Assembly (NCBI GenBank): GCA_964538865.1
Contig: CAZIHU010000006.1
Location: 26,059-66,058 of the forward strand
Direction of reading: 5' to 3'
Length of the DNA stretch: 40,000 nucleotides
DNA from: an uncultured Candidatus Peribacteria bacterium
GTDB taxonomy: Bacteria; Patescibacteriota; Gracilibacteria; UBA1369; UBA12470
Of this stretch, positions 6,737 to 31,241 are shown one piece after another. How positions within the stretch are numbered: the stretch's first letter is position 1; the number at the start of each line of letters is the position of its first letter. The position numbers and the translations under genes are program-made. The notes below the pieces were generated by a model. That model was given only the letters and a program-made list of their open reading frames with translations. It was not told the DNA's origin and did not search any database.

Positions 6737-7030
6737 TTACTCAAGCTCAACCTTAATCCCTCCAACTTTCCCCGCAACAATATTATAGATGAAAGCTCCA
6801 AGCGCACCTGCGATATAACCAATAATAAATCCTACGATTGCCCCTACAATCATCGCTCCAAGAGCCACAATCACCCCAAATCCAGTACCTTCAAAGCCCA
6901 AAAGCGGCCCAATCAAGGAAAATACAAGCGTCAAAGCTCCCCCTAGAGCATACATAGCCGCAAAAATTGTAGCCTGAATCTTCGCGACCGACCCCACATC
7001 GAGACTTTTTACAGTTTTCATTTCTGCCAT
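6737..7030 (-). CDS. Small glycine-rich integral membrane protein (hypothetical)
   Basis: The 97-aa ORF has an ATG start and 2-3 hydrophobic G/A/I-rich segments (FAAMYALGGALTLVFSLIGPLLGF; GVIVALGAMIVGAIVGFIIGYIAGALGAFIY). It has its own extended -10 promoter, the A-rich AAAAACAAAC-ATG start context seen at other genes here, and the terminator directly downstream. The overlapping plus-strand ORF 6725..6946 has an implausible composition. Confidence 0.6.
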   Translation of the reverse strand: MAEMKTVKSLDVGSVAKIQATIFAAMYALGGALTLVFSLIGPLLGFEGTGFGVIVALGAMIVGAIVGFIIGYIAGALGAFIYNIVAGKVGGIKVELE

Positions 7031-7064: not shown

Positions 7065-7073
7065 ATCATACCA
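7065..7073 (-). promoter_or_regulatory. Extended -10 promoter element (TGgTATGAT) for the small membrane protein gene
   Basis: The minus strand reads ..gttttgTGGTATGATttttc.., 35 nt upstream of the ATG at 7030. There is no good -35 (TCGAAC-like), which is typical for extended -10 promoters. Confidence 0.4.
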
Positions 7074-7082
7074 CAAAACATC

Positions 7083-7369
7083 GATGTTCGATACTTGAAT
7101 GTGGAATTTGGAGGTTGGAAGCTCGAATATGGAATCTGGAATTTGGAATCTCGAAGCTCGAATCTGGGATCTCGATGTTCGAATCTCGAAGCTCGAAGCT
7201 CGAATCTCGAATCTGGGATCTCGATGTTCGAATCTCGAAGCTCGAAGCTCGAATCTCGAATCTGGGATCTCGATGTTCGAATCTCGACATTCGACATTCC
7301 AAATTCCAAATTCCACATTCGACATTCAACATTCCACATTCGACATTCCAAATTCCATATTCAGCATTC
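7083..7369. repeat. In-register heptanucleotide tandem array, 41 units (GAANNTC to NANATTC types)
   Basis: Read unit by unit, the 7-nt register is unbroken over 287 bp. There is no stop codon in any of the six frames. The left end (GAATGTG GAATTTG) is the reverse complement of the right end (CAAATTC CACATTC). Confidence 0.95.
7160..7285. repeat. 49-bp (7x7) higher-order tandem repeat inside the heptamer array, about 2.6 copies
   Basis: GAATCTG GGATCTC GATGTTC GAATCTC GAAGCTC GAAGCTC GAATCTC starts at 7160, 7209 and 7258. The third copy is truncated after 4 units. The copies look identical by eye. Confidence 0.9.
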
Positions 7370-7383
7370 AAAACCACCGCAGA

Positions 7384-7477
7384 GGTTTTTGTTCATTTTG
7401 CGAAAACATCTGCAGGCTTCTGTTAATCGGATCTCGATTAACAGAAACGAAGCCGTTTGAGCAAAATAACAAAAACC
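7384..7477. repeat. Nested long-hairpin intergenic element, copy A (terminator-like or structured 3' element)
   Basis: The outer arms GGTTTTTGTTCATTTTGC (7384..7401) and GCAAAATAACAAAAACC (7461..7477) pair. The inner hairpin CTGTTAATCG-GATCT-CGATTAACAG (7420..7444) is a perfect 10-bp stem, and GGCTT/AAGCC pairs lie between. The right arm ends 5 nt from the CYTH stop codon (7483). The sequence resembles copies B and C. Confidence 0.7.
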
Positions 7478-7482
7478 GACAT

Positions 7483-8037
7483 TCAACATTCGAACTTCAA
7501 ATTACAAATATCAACCTCTGGCCACCTCTGCGCAAACAGCCGAAAAGCAGTTTCACAACTAATCTCATAATCCCCTAGCCCAAGCTTTTCCACCATCCCA
7601 TACACCTCATCCTCGGAAGCCCCCTCAATCTCTGCATAACAAATCCCTCCCGGATATTCATCAATATCAATATGCACGCCATCAACATCATACGAAGTTC
7701 GCTTTTTTTCACAATACAAGGTCTCGACCAATCCAACCTCTTTCAAAATCGCACAAGCAACTTCCGCATCATCCACCAACGTCTGAACTTCCGAACGAAC
7801 CTTGCATCGACCACTTTCCTCCTTCGGCCCCTTGTAGGCAAACTCAACAATCGTTTCTCCAATCGACCTCACTCGAATAAGTTTACCATCCGCACGAAGC
7901 CGCTTATCCGGATAATCAAAATGCCGAACAATCATCAGCCCATCCGGCAGTCTCTTTCCGCCAACATCAATTACCGCTTTTTCAAGCGATTCTTTTTCAA
8001 TACCGAGGACTTTGATTTCAATTTCTTTGTTAGGCAT
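7483..8037 (-). CDS. CYTH-domain protein (triphosphate tunnel metalloenzyme / class IV adenylate cyclase CyaB-like)
   Basis: The N-terminal EIEIK matches the ExExK hallmark. It is followed by LIRVRS..EFAYKGP..CKVRSEVQT..LKEVGL..EKKRTSYDV..VHIDIDEYPG..YAEIEG, which fits the conserved R.R / K / R.E.E / K.R / D.D / E.E tunnel residues of CYTH proteins. The start is ATG. The last ~7 codons are encoded by heptamer-repeat sequence. Confidence 0.8.
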   Translation of the reverse strand: MPNKEIEIKVLGIEKESLEKAVIDVGGKRLPDGLMIVRHFDYPDKRLRADGKLIRVRSIGETIVEFAYKGPKEESGRCKVRSEVQTLVDDAEVACAILKEVGLVETLYCEKKRTSYDVDGVHIDIDEYPGGICYAEIEGASEDEVYGMVEKLGLGDYEISCETAFRLFAQRWPEVDICNLKFEC

Positions 8038-8072
8038 TAGGCATTAGGGTTGATAATAGTTTACTACAAACG

Positions 8073-8156: not shown

Positions 8157-8184
8157 GCAATCTGCAAGTTGCAAGTTGCAAACT
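8157..8184. repeat. Heptamer array TGCAATC TGCAAGT TGCAAGT TGCAAAC (4 units)
   Basis: Read directly. It ends 5 nt from the yhhQ stop codon (8190). Confidence 0.85.
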
Positions 8185-9590: not shown

Positions 9591-9632
9591 ACTAGGGACT
9601 AGGTACTAAGTACTAAGTACTAGGTACTACCC
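9591..9632. repeat. Heptamer array ACTAGGG ACTAGGT ACTAAGT ACTAAGT ACTAGGT ACTACCC (6 units)
   Basis: Read directly. The last unit contains the stop codon (CTA at 9627..9629 on plus, TAG on minus) of the giant gene. It is preceded by the hairpin GTTTTGC-GATA-GCAAAAC (9566..9583). Confidence 0.9.
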
Positions 9633-12149
9633 CAGTCTATCAATCATCCCCTTCTCCACCTCATGCTGCTTTCGTGCTTTCTTGTAGAGAATGAACGCAC
9701 CTGCAAGCACGAGTAGAGAAACTCCAATCAACGGTAAATATGGAAATTTGTCTTCTTCTTCGGCTTCAGCCGCAACCGGATGTGTGCCTTCAACATCCGC
9801 CACACTGGTCAGCCCCTCAGCACCAACTGTGAAGTTCACCATCATCGTTTCACCTTTTACACCTTCTTCATCTTCTGGATACATATAAACAACGTGTTCC
9901 CCCGGCTCATCATAAAGCTCGCCCGGCGCCTCAACGATGAACTCACCGGTCTCAATATCAGCAACAAGCACAGACGACAACGTCATACTTTGCCACGTCG
10001 CATAAACTATCGATCCCGGCTCCGTCTTACCAGCAACAGATTCCGAATTTACAAACTCCTCAACCTCAACCTTCGCAGCTTCAATCTCCTTATCAACTTT
10101 AAAAGTACTAACAGTCGATATATCAGTAGCATTTCCATCCTCATCAGCCACAACTATCATCATCTGATATTCTCCACTTTCCAGAAGCTCCTCATCAATA
10201 TTCGCAGCAACTTTACCTTGAGCATCAGCAGTAGTTTCTACAGTAGCCACAGGATTTCCATCCGCATCCAAAACCATAATCACAGCAGTCGAATCAGGCT
10301 CCGCCACCGCTTTTACAAAAACATCAGATGTATAAACCTCATCTTCCTTCATATTCGTAACACTAGCCTTAATTTCCTCAACATAATCCACGCTATTCGG
10401 ATCCATACCATACTCAATCTCCTCAATATCCGTAAACCCATCTCCATCCGAGTCAGCACTAGCAGGATCAGTCCCGTTCTTTATCTCCATATAGTCACTC
10501 ACCCCATCGCCATCGCTATCGGCTGATTCCGCATACACATCCGTATCAACTTCCACAATATTATCCTTTTCTGTCGGAGAAGTACCCGCCGCTAATTCAT
10601 CCACATCCGCAATACCATCACCATCCGTATCATAACTCAATGGATCCGTACCAAGATATTGCTCCATTGTATCGCTCACACCATCACCATCCGAATCCGA
10701 ATCGGTAGGATCCGTACCGCTCACATACTCATCGTAATCGCTCACACCATCCTCATCTGTATCAAGTGCCTTCGCAGTTTCAGCATCGATATCCATATCA
10801 ACCTCCAATATATCTAGCATCCCGTCACCATCGCTATCAGAAAAAGCCTGCTCTATCACCTCTGCTACTTCTTTTTCTACAAAATCTTGTACCGCTTCTA
10901 TAGTTTCTTCTGATTCAAAAATCACTGCCGCACTTTTTTGTAAAACAAGAGGTTCTTGCGTGTCTATTTCGACCTCTATCACAATTTCCTCCTCACCCTC
11001 AACTATAGTTAAAGTTGCCAAACCTTGCGCCAAATCTATCATCTCTGCTGCTTTTTCAACAACCACTTCAGTCTCCTCTTCGACCACCTCCTCCTCCGGA
11101 GCAGCCTCATATGCCTCCACTACCGGCTGATAATATATAACTTCAGCAGGTTCTTCTTCGACAATCTCTTCGTAAACCTCCTCGGAAACCTCTATCTCCA
11201 CTCCTGTTGGAAGCCAGACTGTCTCCTCCTCTTCCTCAGAATCATCCGCGACCGTCTCAACAACTTCGTCACTCTCTTCAGTTGATTCTTCCTCGCCTGC
11301 CAAAACCGTGTCAGATTCCTCTTCAGAAGAAGATTCCGTCGTTGATGTGTCGCTTGTGAATTCGCTTGATTCTGTCGAAGTTGATGTCGAAGAATCCCCA
11401 CCTCCGCCTCCTCCGCCTCCCCCACCTGTCGCAGCTCCAAAATAAGGATCATCCGTATCCTCGGTAGTAAATGTAGAAGTACTGCTCGTCAAACTATTCC
11501 CAAAATCATCAACAGCTTTTACATAAAAATCATAACCGGTCCCTTCAGAAAGGCCCGTAATAACCATGCTGGTTGTTGTCATCGTTGTATCTTCACCATA
11601 CAGAGCGTAAGAAGCAGCACTGGAAAGCTTGTAATAAACCTGATATTTATTCCAATTGGTCTCGGTTGTTATAGCATCCCAGCCTAGTGTGAATGAATCG
11701 TAAGTCATTCCTGCACTTGAGAGGGTTGTGAGCCCCCCTGAAGGCGCCACATTATCAAGTGTGAATGTTGTTCCGGTGCCTGTTGTTCCCGTCCCTGTAC
11801 CATCATAAATAAGTACTCTGAACTGGGCCGTCGAAAGATCTGCAGTTGCTTCATCAGTAGCGCTAGCCCAAGTTGCTGTTATCGTATTTACTCCTGATGA
11901 TGTTGTGATATATCCATTGCTATTTCCCAGCTGATGGACATTGTCGTTTTCGACATTGAAATTGCCATATGTTGCTGACGTTCCACTCGTCTCGGACATC
12001 GTAGCTTTGGTCCAACTACCTCCTGCGTAATACTCAACATAAGCCTGCAGAGTATCGTCGTCGTCTGCATCGTCCACCACCATAGAAATCGTCACCTGTC
12101 CACTCCCATCGGTTGCCCCTGTACCCGTTACACCCGAGATTGTCGGCAC
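9627..12149 (-). repeat. Shared C-terminal cassette (aa 595-1434), copy in paralog 1
   Basis: From VPTISGVTG.. to the stop, it is collinear and highly similar to aa 1285-2145 of the 14661..21083 gene. Long identical nucleotide runs include 9638..9695 = 14669..14726 (58 nt) and about 49 nt starting at 11651 = 16747. Confidence 0.9.
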
Positions 12150-14573: not shown

Positions 14574-14657
14574 CATATCCCACATTCCACATTCAAAATT
14601 CAACATTCGACATTCCACATTCAAGATTCGAAATCCGAAATCCGATATTCCAAATTC
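14574..14657. repeat. Heptamer array, 12 units of the NNNATTC family
   Basis: CATATCC CACATTC CACATTC AAAATTC AACATTC GACATTC CACATTC AAGATTC GAAATCC GAAATCC GATATTC CAAATTC. It is in register and ends 3 nt before the stop codon at 14661..14663. Confidence 0.9.
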
Positions 14658-14660
14658 CAA

Positions 14661-17246
14661 CTACAGTTTATCAATCATCCCCTTCTCCACCTCATGCTGC
14701 TTTCGTGCTTTCTTGTAGAGAATGAATGCACCTGCGATTACTAAGAGAGAAACTCCTATCAATGGTAAATATGGGAACTTATCTTCTTCTTCAGCTGCTG
14801 GATGTGTACCATCCGCTTCCATCGCACTGGTCAATCCTTCCGCACTCACCATAAAATTAACCTGCATCGTTTCTCCTTTCACACCTTCTTCATCTTCGGG
14901 ATAGAAATATGCCGTATGTTCTCCAGGTTCATCGTAAAGTTCTTCCGGTGCTTCAACTACAAATTCACCGGTCTCCATATCAGAAACAAGTACTGACGAT
15001 AACGTCATACTTTGCCATGTTACATAAACTATCGATCCTGGCTCTGTTTTACCTGCTACTGCATCTTCTTCGACTTCAACTTCTTCTACTGTTGCAGCTT
15101 CGATCGTCTTATCCACTGTAAACGATGTCATTGTTGAGACGTCGGTTGCGTTACCGTCTTCGTCTGCAACTACTATCATCATTTGATATTCCCCGCTTTC
15201 AAGCAGTTCTTCATCGATGTTTGCAGCTACTTTACCATTGGCATCTGCGGTTGTTTCTATTACCGCTACAGGGTTGCCTTCTGCGTCTACCACTGTAATA
15301 AGGGCTGTTGAATTAGGCTGAGCAGTCGCTTTCACAAACACATCTGAAGTGTATGTTTCGTCCGCTTTCATGTTTGTTACGCCCGTCTTCATTTCTTCGA
15401 TGTAATCTACCTGATTTGGGTTAGTTCCGTATTCAAGCTCTTCTATGTCTGAAAGTCCATCTCCATCTGAGTCTGTACTGTTTGGATCTGTTCCGTTTCT
15501 TGTTTCCATTGCGTCACTCATTCCGTCTCCATCACTATCTTTGTATTCGTCTCCTTTTTTTTCTATAACTATCGGGTTGTCTTTCTCTGTTGGTGAAGTT
15601 CCTGCGGCTAGCTCATCTACGTCCGCGATACCATCTCCATCTGTATCGCTGCTTGATGCGTCTGTACCGAGAAGTTGTTCCATTGCGTCTGTCATTCCGT
15701 CTCCATCGCTATCGGAATCTGTTGGGTCTGTTCCGTTCATATACTCTGTGTAATCGTCCACACCATCACCGTCTGTATCGGTCTCTTTTGCCGTTTCTGC
15801 ATCCATATCTGTATCAAGCTCGAGGATGTCGAACATCCCATCTCCATCTTCATCTGCGAATGCTTGTTCTAGTACCTCTACCACGTCTACTGTTGGTTCT
15901 GTACTCATTTCCGCGATTTCTTCTGCTGCTTTGGCAAATTCTTCTACTATCTCTTTTTGTTCTTCCATGTCGCGTGGCTCAAACAACGTTGCTGCGCTTT
16001 GCTTCTCAAGCTCTATCTCTTGCTCTAAATCGATTTCTATCTCGATTGTAATATCTTCTCTTCCTTCTTCGGTTAGTGTCAAAGTTGCCAAGCCTTCTGC
16101 CAAATCTATTACTTCGATTGCTTGTACTGGTACTTGGATCTCTTCAACTTCTTCGGGGGTTTCTTCTTCAGCAGGAACCTCTTCGATCACTTCCAGAGCA
16201 GGCTCTTCATATGTCACAACCGTTGGTTCGTAATACACAGGTTCTTCTTCAGCAACTTCCTCATAGACTTCCTCGGGGACTTCTACTTCTACTCCTGTTG
16301 GGAGCCAGACAGACTCTTCTTCAGAATCGTCTGCTTCTTCAGCAGCTTCGTGACTCTCCTCACCGGATTCTTCTTCACCTGCCAAACTCGTATCAGAAGA
16401 AGATTCCGTCGTTGATGTGTCGCTCGTGGACGTGTCGCTTGTGGAATCGCTCGTGGACGTATCGCTCGTGGATGTCGAAGTCGATGAATCTCCTCCACCA
16501 CCGCCGCCTCCTCCACCTCCACCGGTCACAGCTCCAAAGTAAGGATCATCCGTGTCCTCGGTTGTGAATGTAGAAGTACTACTCGTCAAACTATTTCCAA
16601 AATCATCTACTGCTTTTACATAAAAATCGTATGCAATTCCTTCACTCAATCCAGTTATAGCCATACTGGTTGTTGTCATCGTTGTATCCTCTCCGTACAA
16701 AGCATAAGAAGCATCGCTGGATACTTTGTAATAAACCTGATATTTGTTCCAATTGGTCTCGGTTGTTATAGCATCCCAGCCTAGTGTGAATGAATCATAA
16801 GTCATACCTGCGCTTGAGAGGGTTGTGAGTCCTCCCGATGGTGCAACATTATCAAGTGTGAATGTTGTACCGGTACCTGTCGTTCCCGTACCTGTCCCGT
16901 CATAAATAAACACTCTGAACTGCGCTGTCGAAAGGTCGGCAGTCGCTTCATCTGTTGCACTAGCCCAAGTTGCCGTTACTGTATTTGGCGTGACTGACGT
17001 CGTGATATATCCATTACTGTTACCAAGTTGATAGACGTTATCGTTTTCGACATTGAAATTGCCGTACGTAGCGCTCGTTCCGCTTGTTTCTGACATCGTA
17101 GCTTTCGTCCAGCTACCACCTGCGTAATACTCAACTACAGCCTGCAGAGTATTGTCACCATCTGCATCGTCTACCGCCATCGAAACCGTCACTCCTCCAG
17201 TTCCATCGGTAGACTGAGCACCTGTTACTGTTGTAATCGTCGGGAC
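14661..17246 (-). repeat. Shared C-terminal cassette (aa 1285-2145), copy in paralog 2
   Basis: See 9627..12149. Similarity begins at VPTITTVTG.. (V codon top at 17246) and runs to the stop codon. Confidence 0.9.
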
Positions 17247-30380: not shown

Positions 30381-31241
30381 TCATGGCGCCTGAGCCCGCT
30401 TCATATGCTCTTGGTACTTGAGGTCGATCGCATTGAGCTTGGGTGCTTCGCGGAGACGCCACTTCTCAGGTGGGTCGTGTTCGTTCTCGATCAGGCCTGC
30501 GTGGGCTAGTTGATGATGTTCATCACAGAGAGCGACTATTCGGTTGTGATTCTGCGTGGCAGCATATCTATCTGGGTGGTGGTAACAGGTGTGTGGCTTG
30601 TTGCAGCCTGGAAATGTGCATTTGCCGTTATTGTCGGTTTCTCGTTTCTTCTGGGCTGAAGGGTTGCGACCGGTTGTTCCTTTGGATTTTCGAGTTTTCT
30701 TGGGTGGTTCTTCTGCTTGGTCAAGGAGTGTTTTGAGTACTTCCCCGAGTGGAACCGGTTCTCGACGTTCTTTTTCTAGCCTCTGTTGATATTTTTTGAG
30801 CTTGAATTGGGTGTCTTTGTCGAGTTTGAATGTTACAGATTGAAATTCCGAGCCGGCTCGGAATTCACAGGTTGGGGCTTTCATTTCTCGTGCGTGTTGT
30901 TGGAGAGCGCTTTTGGGTAAGGTCTTAACTAATTCAACTTGTTCCTCCTCTGAAACCGGGATTGATGCTGCTACTCTTACTTTTGACCAGCCTTCGTTTA
31001 CTATTTGGGCTTTCAGTTTAGGCTTATCCTCCACCTTTTTATAAGTCCTCAATATTTCGTCTACTGTAGATTCATTCAAACCAGCTAACTTTTTCGCAAA
31101 TTCATAAATCGAATACATATTATGTTTCTTCCACAATTCTCTCTTCTCAACTTCCGGCAATAATTCAGCGAATTTCCTACTCCACATTCGAGTCTTAGCA
31201 CCGCATTCACAGCATAATTTGTATAGTTCTTTGTCTGTCAT
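30381..31241 (-). CDS. HNH endonuclease domain protein (free-standing)
   Basis: The C-terminal region reads CTFPGCNKPHTCYHHPDRYAATQNHNRIVALCDEHHQLAHAG (Cys pair, H-N-H residues). The N-terminal helical region with a lysine-rich linker resembles the DUF222/HNH architecture. The start is ATG with an A-rich context (TCAAAAACAA-ATG). Confidence 0.8.
   Translation of the reverse strand: MTDKELYKLCCECGAKTRMWSRKFAELLPEVEKRELWKKHNMYSIYEFAKKLAGLNESTVDEILRTYKKVEDKPKLKAQIVNEGWSKVRVAASIPVSEEEQVELVKTLPKSALQQHAREMKAPTCEFRAGSEFQSVTFKLDKDTQFKLKKYQQRLEKERREPVPLGEVLKTLLDQAEEPPKKTRKSKGTTGRNPSAQKKRETDNNGKCTFPGCNKPHTCYHHPDRYAATQNHNRIVALCDEHHQLAHAGLIENEHDPPEKWRLREAPKLNAIDLKYQEHMKRAQAP

Follow-up and report, generated by a model that had tools for sequence, protein, structure and literature searches.

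Introduction

The short tandemly repeated repetitive (STRR) sequences of heterocystous cyanobacteria are built of seven-base units, the consensus units of STRR1, STRR2 and STRR3 being CCCCAGT, TTGGTCA and CAACAGT; loops of 7 nt generally escape mismatch repair. Mycobacterial interspersed repetitive units (MIRUs) are intergenic minisatellites of ~50 bp that lie between co-oriented genes, behave as variable-number tandem repeats (VNTRs) and differ between strains by whole unit copies. Repetitive extragenic palindromes and bacterial interspersed mosaic elements (REP/BIME), like intrinsic terminators, are found 3′ of genes, form stable RNA hairpins and may end or protect the upstream transcript. 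Heptanucleotides are the commonest 5–11-nt class of long simple-sequence repeats (LSSRs) in prokaryotes rich in simple-sequence repeats (SSRs), a class put down to slippage (Mrazek, Guo and Shah 2007, per PMC4679880). Here we describe a 287-bp heptanucleotide array at positions 7083–7369 of a 40,000-nt stretch of DNA from an uncultured Candidatus Peribacteria bacterium (contig CAZIHU010000006.1, positions 26,059–66,058; hereafter, the window), lying between a CYTH-domain gene and the gene for a 97-aa membrane protein.

We propose, with a probability of roughly 60%, that this array is a non-coding heptanucleotide simple-sequence repeat of the STRR or LSSR kind, born of slippage, the main effect of which is structural. 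Twelve units of a dispersed GAAT(G/T)T(G/C) family face 29 inverted and diverged units, seven of which have been re-amplified as a 49-bp unit; slipped-strand mispairing or unequal exchange during replication could account for both the origin of the array and its changes in length. The array has expanded a CYTH/membrane-protein spacer that measures 59–75 bp in relatives, leaving the promoter-proximal ~50 nt intact. Probably no dedicated factor reads the array sequence. Instead, the CYTH transcript would fold into an imperfect hairpin of ~300 nt, with a U-rich tract after it that leads up to the downstream −10 element, and gain or loss of 49-mers would lengthen or shorten this hairpin with the promoter untouched. 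The array was first pointed out in a reading of the bare sequence and its open reading frames (ORFs), here called the sequence-only reading, the claims of which are taken up below.

Two opposed heptamer arrays with a 49-bp higher-order unit

Stepping through 7083–7369 in 7-nt increments reproduced exactly the 41 units and the unbroken register listed in the sequence-only reading, with T invariant at position 6, A at position 2 in 37/41 units and G at position 1 in 33/41. Tandem Repeats Finder recovered the 7-nt period together with a period-49 array at 7132–7287 (3.2 copies, 94% matches, score 270). The 49-nt unit had been placed at 7160, 7209 and 7258; complete 49-mers indeed begin at the first two of these positions and a partial one at the third. 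A pattern of four consecutive units is matched 11 times in the window, the figure for shuffled sequence (100 shuffles) being 0.00.

The element had been presented as a single uniform array. Its heptamer register stands; its uniformity does not, and two opposed arrays describe 7083–7369 better (Table 1). The units fall into the sequences GAAT(G/T)T(G/C), GAATCTC and GAAGCTC and are degenerate at 3–4 of their 7 positions; those of the long arm (GAATCTC, GAAGCTC) are the inverted, diverged partner of the short-arm units, and seven of them make up the 49-mer. The frame of the units, GA-NNN-TC, reads alike on both strands, and for this reason the 7-nt register continues unbroken through the inversion. 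The dyad symmetry that had been claimed is evident in the outer units, GAATGTG, GAATTTG and GAATATG on the left being the reverse complements of CACATTC, CAAATTC and CATATTC on the right, and it is imperfect: the arms 7096–7189 and 7270–7363 are 72% complementary, with the best 37 nt reaching 84%. The array holds 22 TCGA sites, spaced every 7 bp in the long arm. A reading in terms of restriction-site avoidance or enrichment was dropped, the rest of the window showing no avoidance of TCGA (148 observed, 137 expected).

Relatives carry the gene pair with a short spacer

The closest named homologue of the CYTH protein comes from a Candidatus Peregrinibacteria metagenome-assembled genome (MAG) and is 64% identical. 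Contigs that encode CYTH homologues of 54–70% identity preserve the gene order Vut_1, CYTH, small protein, with membrane proteins that are 53–57% identical to the one in the window; this conservation was established by direct comparison with the neighbours of the CYTH homologues, a word-index homologue search with the membrane protein having returned only itself. In these Peregrinibacteria relatives, the spacer between the CYTH and membrane-protein genes measures 59–75 bp, and the heptamer array is absent from the spacers sampled. The leader TAACAAAAACAAAC-ATG that precedes the membrane-protein gene is conserved in at least one relative, and so the array and an adjoining 94-nt hairpin were added between the CYTH stop codon and the ancestral spacer. 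Over ~100 kb, the sampled relatives hold one heptamer array, of a different kind. On these sequence comparisons, the propensity to form heptamer arrays is recent, lineage-specific and patchy. If correct, this history offers a clean and datable case of intergenic growth in a compact genome of the Candidate Phyla Radiation (CPR) type, in which slippage of heptamers, inversion and the re-amplification of a 49-bp unit took a spacer between two conserved genes from ~60–75 bp to 452 bp.

Copy number of the 49-mer differs between assemblies

The possibility that the array is an assembly artefact had been raised at the outset. The window sequence corresponds to JGI 3300009374 contig Ga0118720_1000702, and the array with identical flanks was found in ~10 separately assembled JGI, ENA and Logan samples. 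Relative to the window, one contig lacks exactly 49 bp (L001) and three lack exactly 98 bp (L004, L005, L131), while L128 matches the window. Another contig, L132, runs from the short arm via one copy of the 49-mer into the far flank, whereas two or more copies are present in L134 and L003. The array is also where six contigs end. The flanks of contigs with one, two and three copies carry no single-nucleotide polymorphisms (SNPs) over ~4 kb. No strain haplotype linked to copy number was found among these contigs, and linkage cannot prove that the copy-number alleles are real. All copy numbers derive from short-read assemblies, and it is the junction sequence within them that bears on the question: the difference between one copy and at least two is probably real, because a one-copy contig needs a junction word of ~36 nt that is missing from genomes with two or more copies. 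No length variation was seen at the other arrays of the window between the assemblies compared.

The sequence-only reading had inferred slipped-strand length variation that alters the geometry upstream of the membrane-protein promoter. The first part agrees with the 49-bp steps between assemblies. The second does not: the variable 49-mers (7160–7285) lie ~90–220 bp upstream of the −10-like element at 7065–7073, and slippage therefore leaves the promoter spacing unchanged. The same positions bear on a phase or contingency switch in which the number of 49-mers tunes the small membrane-protein gene or the nearby genes for giant surface proteins. Such a switch would draw on the apparent one-, two- and three-copy alleles with identical flanks and on the presence of giant SLH, fn3, TSP3 and RHS-type surface proteins nearby, and we judge it very unlikely, given that the variable part sits neither between promoter elements nor in a reading frame, that the other arrays show no length differences and that relatives conserve the gene pair without any array.

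A further candidate, that the array is an assembly artefact or else a protein-coding repeat, is also bounded by these alleles. Many contigs break in the array, and six overlapping ORFs can be called across it, as had been reported together with the claim that no stop codon occurs in any frame. The ORF calls stand, but three of the six frames contain a stop within 7083–7369, one each (forward frame 2 near 7095; two minus frames near 7363 and 7327), and only a 227-bp core (~7099–7325) is open in all six. The ORFs can be called because the units are poor in stop triplets, and are in this sense a by-product. Judged from the sequence, the array is non-coding, because alleles differing by 49 or 98 bp would frameshift every ORF, 49 not being a multiple of 3; and the independent JGI, ENA and Logan assemblies join the array to unique flanks on both sides. 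An artefactual or coding origin thus has a negligible probability.

Two observations on contig structure stand apart from these. The ENA contig L006 (SUTE22-1 SAMN10231913 scaffold_81576, positions 1465–1800) is identical to the window through the CYTH gene and the 94-nt hairpin and then passes through 6–7 diverged heptamers into a gene for an extracytoplasmic function (ECF) sigma factor, in place of the membrane-protein gene; either the array was the site of a rearrangement here or the contig was joined chimerically. Contig L266 lacks exactly 49 bp of non-repetitive sequence (window 30388–30436) in the 3′ end of a 286-aa gene, a length equal to that of the 49-mer.

For practical purposes, the 49-mer is a candidate VNTR marker of strains in this uncultured marine population. 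Arrays of this kind also break short-read contigs and can produce chimeric joins, which matters for MAG quality.

The array is predicted to fold into a long hairpin

The sequence-only reading had expected the array to fold back into a long imperfect hairpin or cruciform, and folding bears this out, both the DNA and the RNA folds being far more stable than shuffled sequence. As single-stranded DNA, the array region folds with −65.9 kcal/mol (z = −7.1); as minus-strand RNA, the whole spacer reaches −172.5 kcal/mol (z = −8.9), with 0/100 shuffles as stable. The sense RNA is predicted to form a single exterior stem-loop from 7379 to 7082 (298 nt); this pairs 229 of the 287 array bases, and AUGUUUUGUGG comes after it. 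Each added 49-mer contributes ~20 kcal/mol to the stability of the predicted RNA fold.

On these models, the array fold probably ends, insulates or stabilises the CYTH transcript ahead of the membrane-protein promoter, and a terminator or insulator role, one of the functions suggested for the array at the outset, is plausible. Set beside intrinsic terminators, the predicted focal hairpin precedes a U-tract, AUGUUUUGUGG, and has a stem that is neither short nor GC-rich. A scan for the intrinsic-terminator consensus, which admits only loops of 3–8 nt, did not call the focal hairpin. A search of Rfam with the array returned no family at either gathering or E-value thresholds; the one hit, to mir-2566 (26.7 bits against a gathering score of 86), was rejected as spurious.

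The predicted fold also bears on whether the array acts as a multivalent binding platform, either for a CsrA/RsmE-, S1- or Csp-like protein on RNA or for a heptamer-binding DNA regulator. In its favour are regularly spaced motifs: TCGA sites return at 7-bp intervals along the long arm, and the sense RNA carries repeated GGAAU. Proteins of this type have also been suggested in connection with TAACTGA repeats (PMC4679880) and with Nostoc heptamers (bioRxiv 10.1101/2022.06.06.494920). The titration of a CsrA-type protein by GGA motifs had been put forward for the array itself. However, the minimum free energy fold places all six GGA motifs of the sense RNA in base pairs, their probability of being unpaired averaging 0.07; the degeneracy of the units at 3–4 of 7 positions and the retention of the gene pair without an array in relatives point the same way. 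No CsrA domain, and no other candidate binder, was found among the ten window proteins scanned for domains. A multivalent binding platform seems very improbable.

Other heptamer arrays in the window and a possible 3′-end signal

An excess of period-7 arrays, which the sequence-only reading had required genome-wide for its hypothesis, was found within the 40-kb window. When periods from 2 to 15 were scanned with a 42-nt sliding window, the match threshold was passed at 334 positions for period 7 and at 268 for the multiple 14; each of the remaining periods gave 0–16. A similar picture came from perfect tandems with 2.5 copies or more: all seven with period 7 are intergenic and comprise at least five different units, while other periods from 4 to 12 yield 0–2 tandems each. 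Four of the arrays, the focal one included, share the nAnATTC family, and three use other heptamers. Among the latter, the array at 9591–9629 reads TAGTACC/TAGTACT on the gene strand and starts with the TAG stop codon of the 1434-aa gene; as every unit contains TAG, stops fall in all three frames. The TTAGGCA mini-array at the CYTH start places two ATGs 7 nt apart on the gene strand (ATGCCTAATGCCTAA). Vut_1 and CYTH are 152 bp apart in the window, with two heptamer mini-arrays between them; the two genes overlap in relatives.

Several observations weigh against slippage with a structural outcome as a full account of the locus. The arrays are clustered, with none in the window from 29 to 40 kb or in the ~6 kb past its end. 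In five of the seven, 0–8 nt separate the array start from the stop codon that ends the upstream gene, a placement with a Fisher combined p of ~5e-4 to 2e-5 under uniform placement, in a post hoc statistic on a small sample that includes two duplication-related arrays. This placement is not obviously expected from pure neutral slippage and hints at function or at an insertion preference. The terminator or insulator effect is a prediction of the folding models, and the predicted stem is AU/GU-rich and far longer than those of canonical intrinsic terminators. Moreover, the difference between two copies of the 49-mer and three or more could reflect assembler collapse around a 49-bp de Bruijn cycle, which makes exact counts unreliable.

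Possibly, post-stop heptamer arrays form a dedicated 3′-end signal that is read by a protein or by RNA polymerase, with the focal array as an elaborated member. The proximity to stop codons would fit such a signal, as would the single orientation, relative to the upstream gene, of all stand-alone arrays of the nAnATTC family, and the position of the focal hairpin and U-tract just before the next promoter. Yet the five or more unrelated unit sequences run contrary to a single sequence-specific reader, an inverted partner is present in the focal array only, so that a hairpin is not a shared property, and two of the arrays are copies from one duplication, leaving fewer independent cases. With relatives that lack the arrays and a positional statistic that is post hoc, we regard a dedicated signal as unlikely. 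Extended to its broadest form, in which arrays seeded at stop codons constitute a functional 3′-end code for terminating, stabilising or processing transcripts that, in this reduced genome, does part of the work of canonical terminators, and in which the focal array is a hairpin-forming, copy-number-variable version that insulates the membrane-protein gene, the idea is improbable. Should array starts prove to coincide with stop codons genome-wide, the function of bacterial heptamer repeats would become testable with metatranscriptomes.

The duplication just mentioned is a direct repeat of 211 bp (27901–28111 and 28710–28920, 97.6% identical) that brackets a ParE-like toxin gene (28139–28417) and an antitoxin-like gene (28407–28661). 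Each copy runs into a heptamer array, and the boundary of the duplication thus lies inside the arrays. The coincidence of array borders with this duplication and with the junction in L006 suggests that the arrays are recombination-prone. Taken further, the focal array could be the footprint or hotspot of recombination or mobile DNA, its inverted arm arising from a strand-switch or inversion event. Besides the duplication around the toxin–antitoxin pair and the change to an ECF sigma-factor gene after 6–7 units in L006, the 94-nt hairpin, with its terminal inverted repeats, lies between the main array and the heptamers at the CYTH stop. Against this, the focal array shows no transposase, integrase or target-site duplication, the L006 junction could have come from chimeric joining across the repeats, and a recombination history is compatible with slippage and does not replace it. 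As an alternative to slippage, we consider it most improbable.

Neighbouring genes, promoter region and 94-nt hairpin

The genes on the minus strand are ordered Vut_1, CYTH, array and 97-aa membrane protein, with the gene for a giant SLH-domain protein converging from the other side. As the sequence-only reading had it, the array sits between the 3′ end of the CYTH gene and the putative extended −10 element TGgTATGAT of the membrane-protein gene; a −35/−10 consensus scan did not include this element among its calls. Features of the locus and the further arrays are collected in Table 1.

Table 1. Coordinates (window numbering) of the focal array, its surroundings and the other heptamer arrays
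Feature	Position	Strand	Remarks
Whole heptamer array	7083–7369		Non-coding; 41 in-register units, 287 bp
Long arm	7083–7285	+	29 units of type GAAnnTn; orientation inverse to the window's other arrays
Short arm	7286–7369	+	12 units of the dispersed nAnATTC family (GAATnTn on the gene-sense minus strand), oriented as in the family's three other arrays
49-bp (7 × 7) higher-order unit	7160–7285		2.6 copies in the window; Tandem Repeats Finder and unit read-out
97-aa membrane-protein gene	6737–7030	−	Downstream of the array; kept beside CYTH in relatives
TGgTATGAT, extended −10-like element of the membrane-protein gene	7065–7073	−	Consensus match only
U-rich tract AUGUUUUGUGG	7071–7081	−	Adjoins the 3′ end of the predicted ~300-nt hairpin; leads straight up to the −10 element
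94-nt hairpin	7384–7477	−	Separate from the array, between it and the CYTH stop; 15-nt terminal inverted repeats GGTTTTTGTTCATTT / AAAATAACAAAAACC
Short run of the array's heptamers (2–3 units)	7478–7495	+	Overlaps the CYTH stop codon
CYTH-domain gene	7483–8037	−	Upstream of the array; Pfam PF01928, E = 1.7e-12
Mini-array TTAGGCA × 2.7	8030–8048	+	Overlaps the CYTH start codon
Mini-array TGCAAGT × 2.7	8163–8181	+	8 nt after the Vut_1 stop
Array of a different heptamer, ACTAGGT/ACTAAGT	9591–9629	+	Overlaps the stop of the 1434-aa gene
Second array of the nAnATTC family	14577–14660	+	Starts directly after the stop (14661) of the 2145-aa gene
Third array of the nAnATTC family	28082–28139	+	Begins at the stop of the ParE-like gene (28139–28417)
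Fourth array, nAnATTC family then TCACTTC/TGATTTC units	28899–28955	+	~98 nt after the M16 peptidase stop

The heptamers that overlap the CYTH stop encode the final residues of the protein (..FEC), two more than homologues have. From the layout of the sequence, the 94-nt hairpin may have inserted into an older array, one whose start was then at the CYTH stop codon. In appearance it resembles a miniature inverted-repeat transposable element (MITE); it has no Rfam match, and no target duplication was seen.

The wider neighbourhood is rich in giant surface proteins of the SLH, fn3, TSP3 and RHS types. The 1434-aa and 2145-aa giant surface-protein genes contain paralogous modules, with 11147–12113 and 16238–17210 being 81% identical and a second segment pair, 9633–10832 and 14664–15848, 72% identical. 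A replication origin or cluster of DnaA boxes, suggested by the resemblance of TTCCACA to a relaxed DnaA box, was considered and dropped, the signs of both GC and AT skew being constant across the window apart from an effect of gene orientation. GC skew of the forward strand runs from −0.3 to −0.5 over minus-strand genes and is ~0 over the forward-strand gene, while AT skew is mostly positive; this strong strand asymmetry would fit a window that lies on a single replication arm and contains no origin. The window also yielded no genes for tRNA or tmRNA.

Comparison with known repeats

Scans for the pattern nAMATTC returned at least 120 matches each in reference genomes and in metagenomes, and the matches listed did not extend to the organism of the window. 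Those listed were mostly short homogeneous microsatellites from many phyla, among them (AAAATTC)n, (CAAATTC)n, (GAAATTC)n and (GACATTC)n, and the idea of a special cross-phylum motif was abandoned; in viral contigs, permuted control heptamer patterns gave 113 and at least 120 matches against at least 120 for the focal pattern. Arrays of (AAAATTC)3–5 were recovered in many Nostocales among the matches listed. A short element, TCAATTC (AAAATTC)3–4 AAAATTA, recurs in near-identical form in many Nostocales (L008, L013, L018, L047, L049, L056, L058, L074 and others); it corresponds to the (TTCAAAA)n heptamer that has been treated in Nostoc PCC 7120 (bioRxiv 10.1101/2022.06.06.494920). Long heptamer arrays with mixed units, higher-order units or inverted arms also occur in unrelated contigs (L173, L147, L176, L015, L157). 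Two of these are hairpin-capable: a (GAATGTT)n...(AACATTC)n pair directly after a canonical terminator in a Thermoanaerobaculia MAG (L015, 4090–4200) and an inverted pair, (CAAATTC)5...(GAATTTG)5, in a metagenome contig (L157, 8080–8245).

The sequence-only reading had likened the array to the cyanobacterial STRRs and knew of no description in an organism with this gene content. As a tandem heptanucleotide array the element does belong with the STRR or LSSR kind, and full-text literature searches yielded no report of such repeats in Peregrinibacteria or other CPR bacteria. The LSSRs of PMC4679880 (5–11-nt units) resemble the window's arrays in a 7-base unit, intergenic position, a length greater than chance, sporadic occurrence across lineages, a presumed origin by slippage and the presence of several different heptamers in one genome. 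The focal locus departs from them in its degenerate units, in its two quasi-palindromic arrays with a 49-bp higher-order unit superimposed and in a host that is apparently a member of the CPR.

With the cyanobacterial STRRs, and with (TTCAAAA)n/(AAAATTC)n of Nostoc PCC 7120, the window shares tandem heptamers dispersed over many intergenic sites. The units and the host phylum of the focal array differ, however, so that strictly speaking it does not count as an STRR. Nostoc arrays consist of 3–8 homogeneous units, mostly near start codons or promoters (bioRxiv 10.1101/2022.06.06.494920), whereas those of the window are heterogeneous and mostly abut stop codons. The TAACTGA repeats of marine Beggiatoaceae and some Cyanobacteria and Bacteroidetes (MacGregor 2015, PMC4679880) are similarly abundant intergenic heptamers in which contigs often end; they show indels in 7-nt steps between strains and include a few long arrays mixed with other heptamers. 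TAACTGA sets are mostly 2–6 perfect copies in forward orientation just upstream of start codons (PMC4679880), while the window arrays lie at the 3′ ends of genes, have variable units and in one case form a long hairpin.

Outside the heptamer repeats, the 49-mer recalls a MIRU, but it is composed of seven heptamers, occupies a single locus and varies on the evidence of short-read assemblies only. Compared with REP/BIME palindromes and intrinsic terminators, the focal stem is ~140 bp long, imperfect, AU/GU-rich and built from tandem repeats, as opposed to a short GC-rich stem or a dispersed palindrome of 35–40 nt. Each feature of the focal array has a precedent, and the array is a repeat of a known kind.

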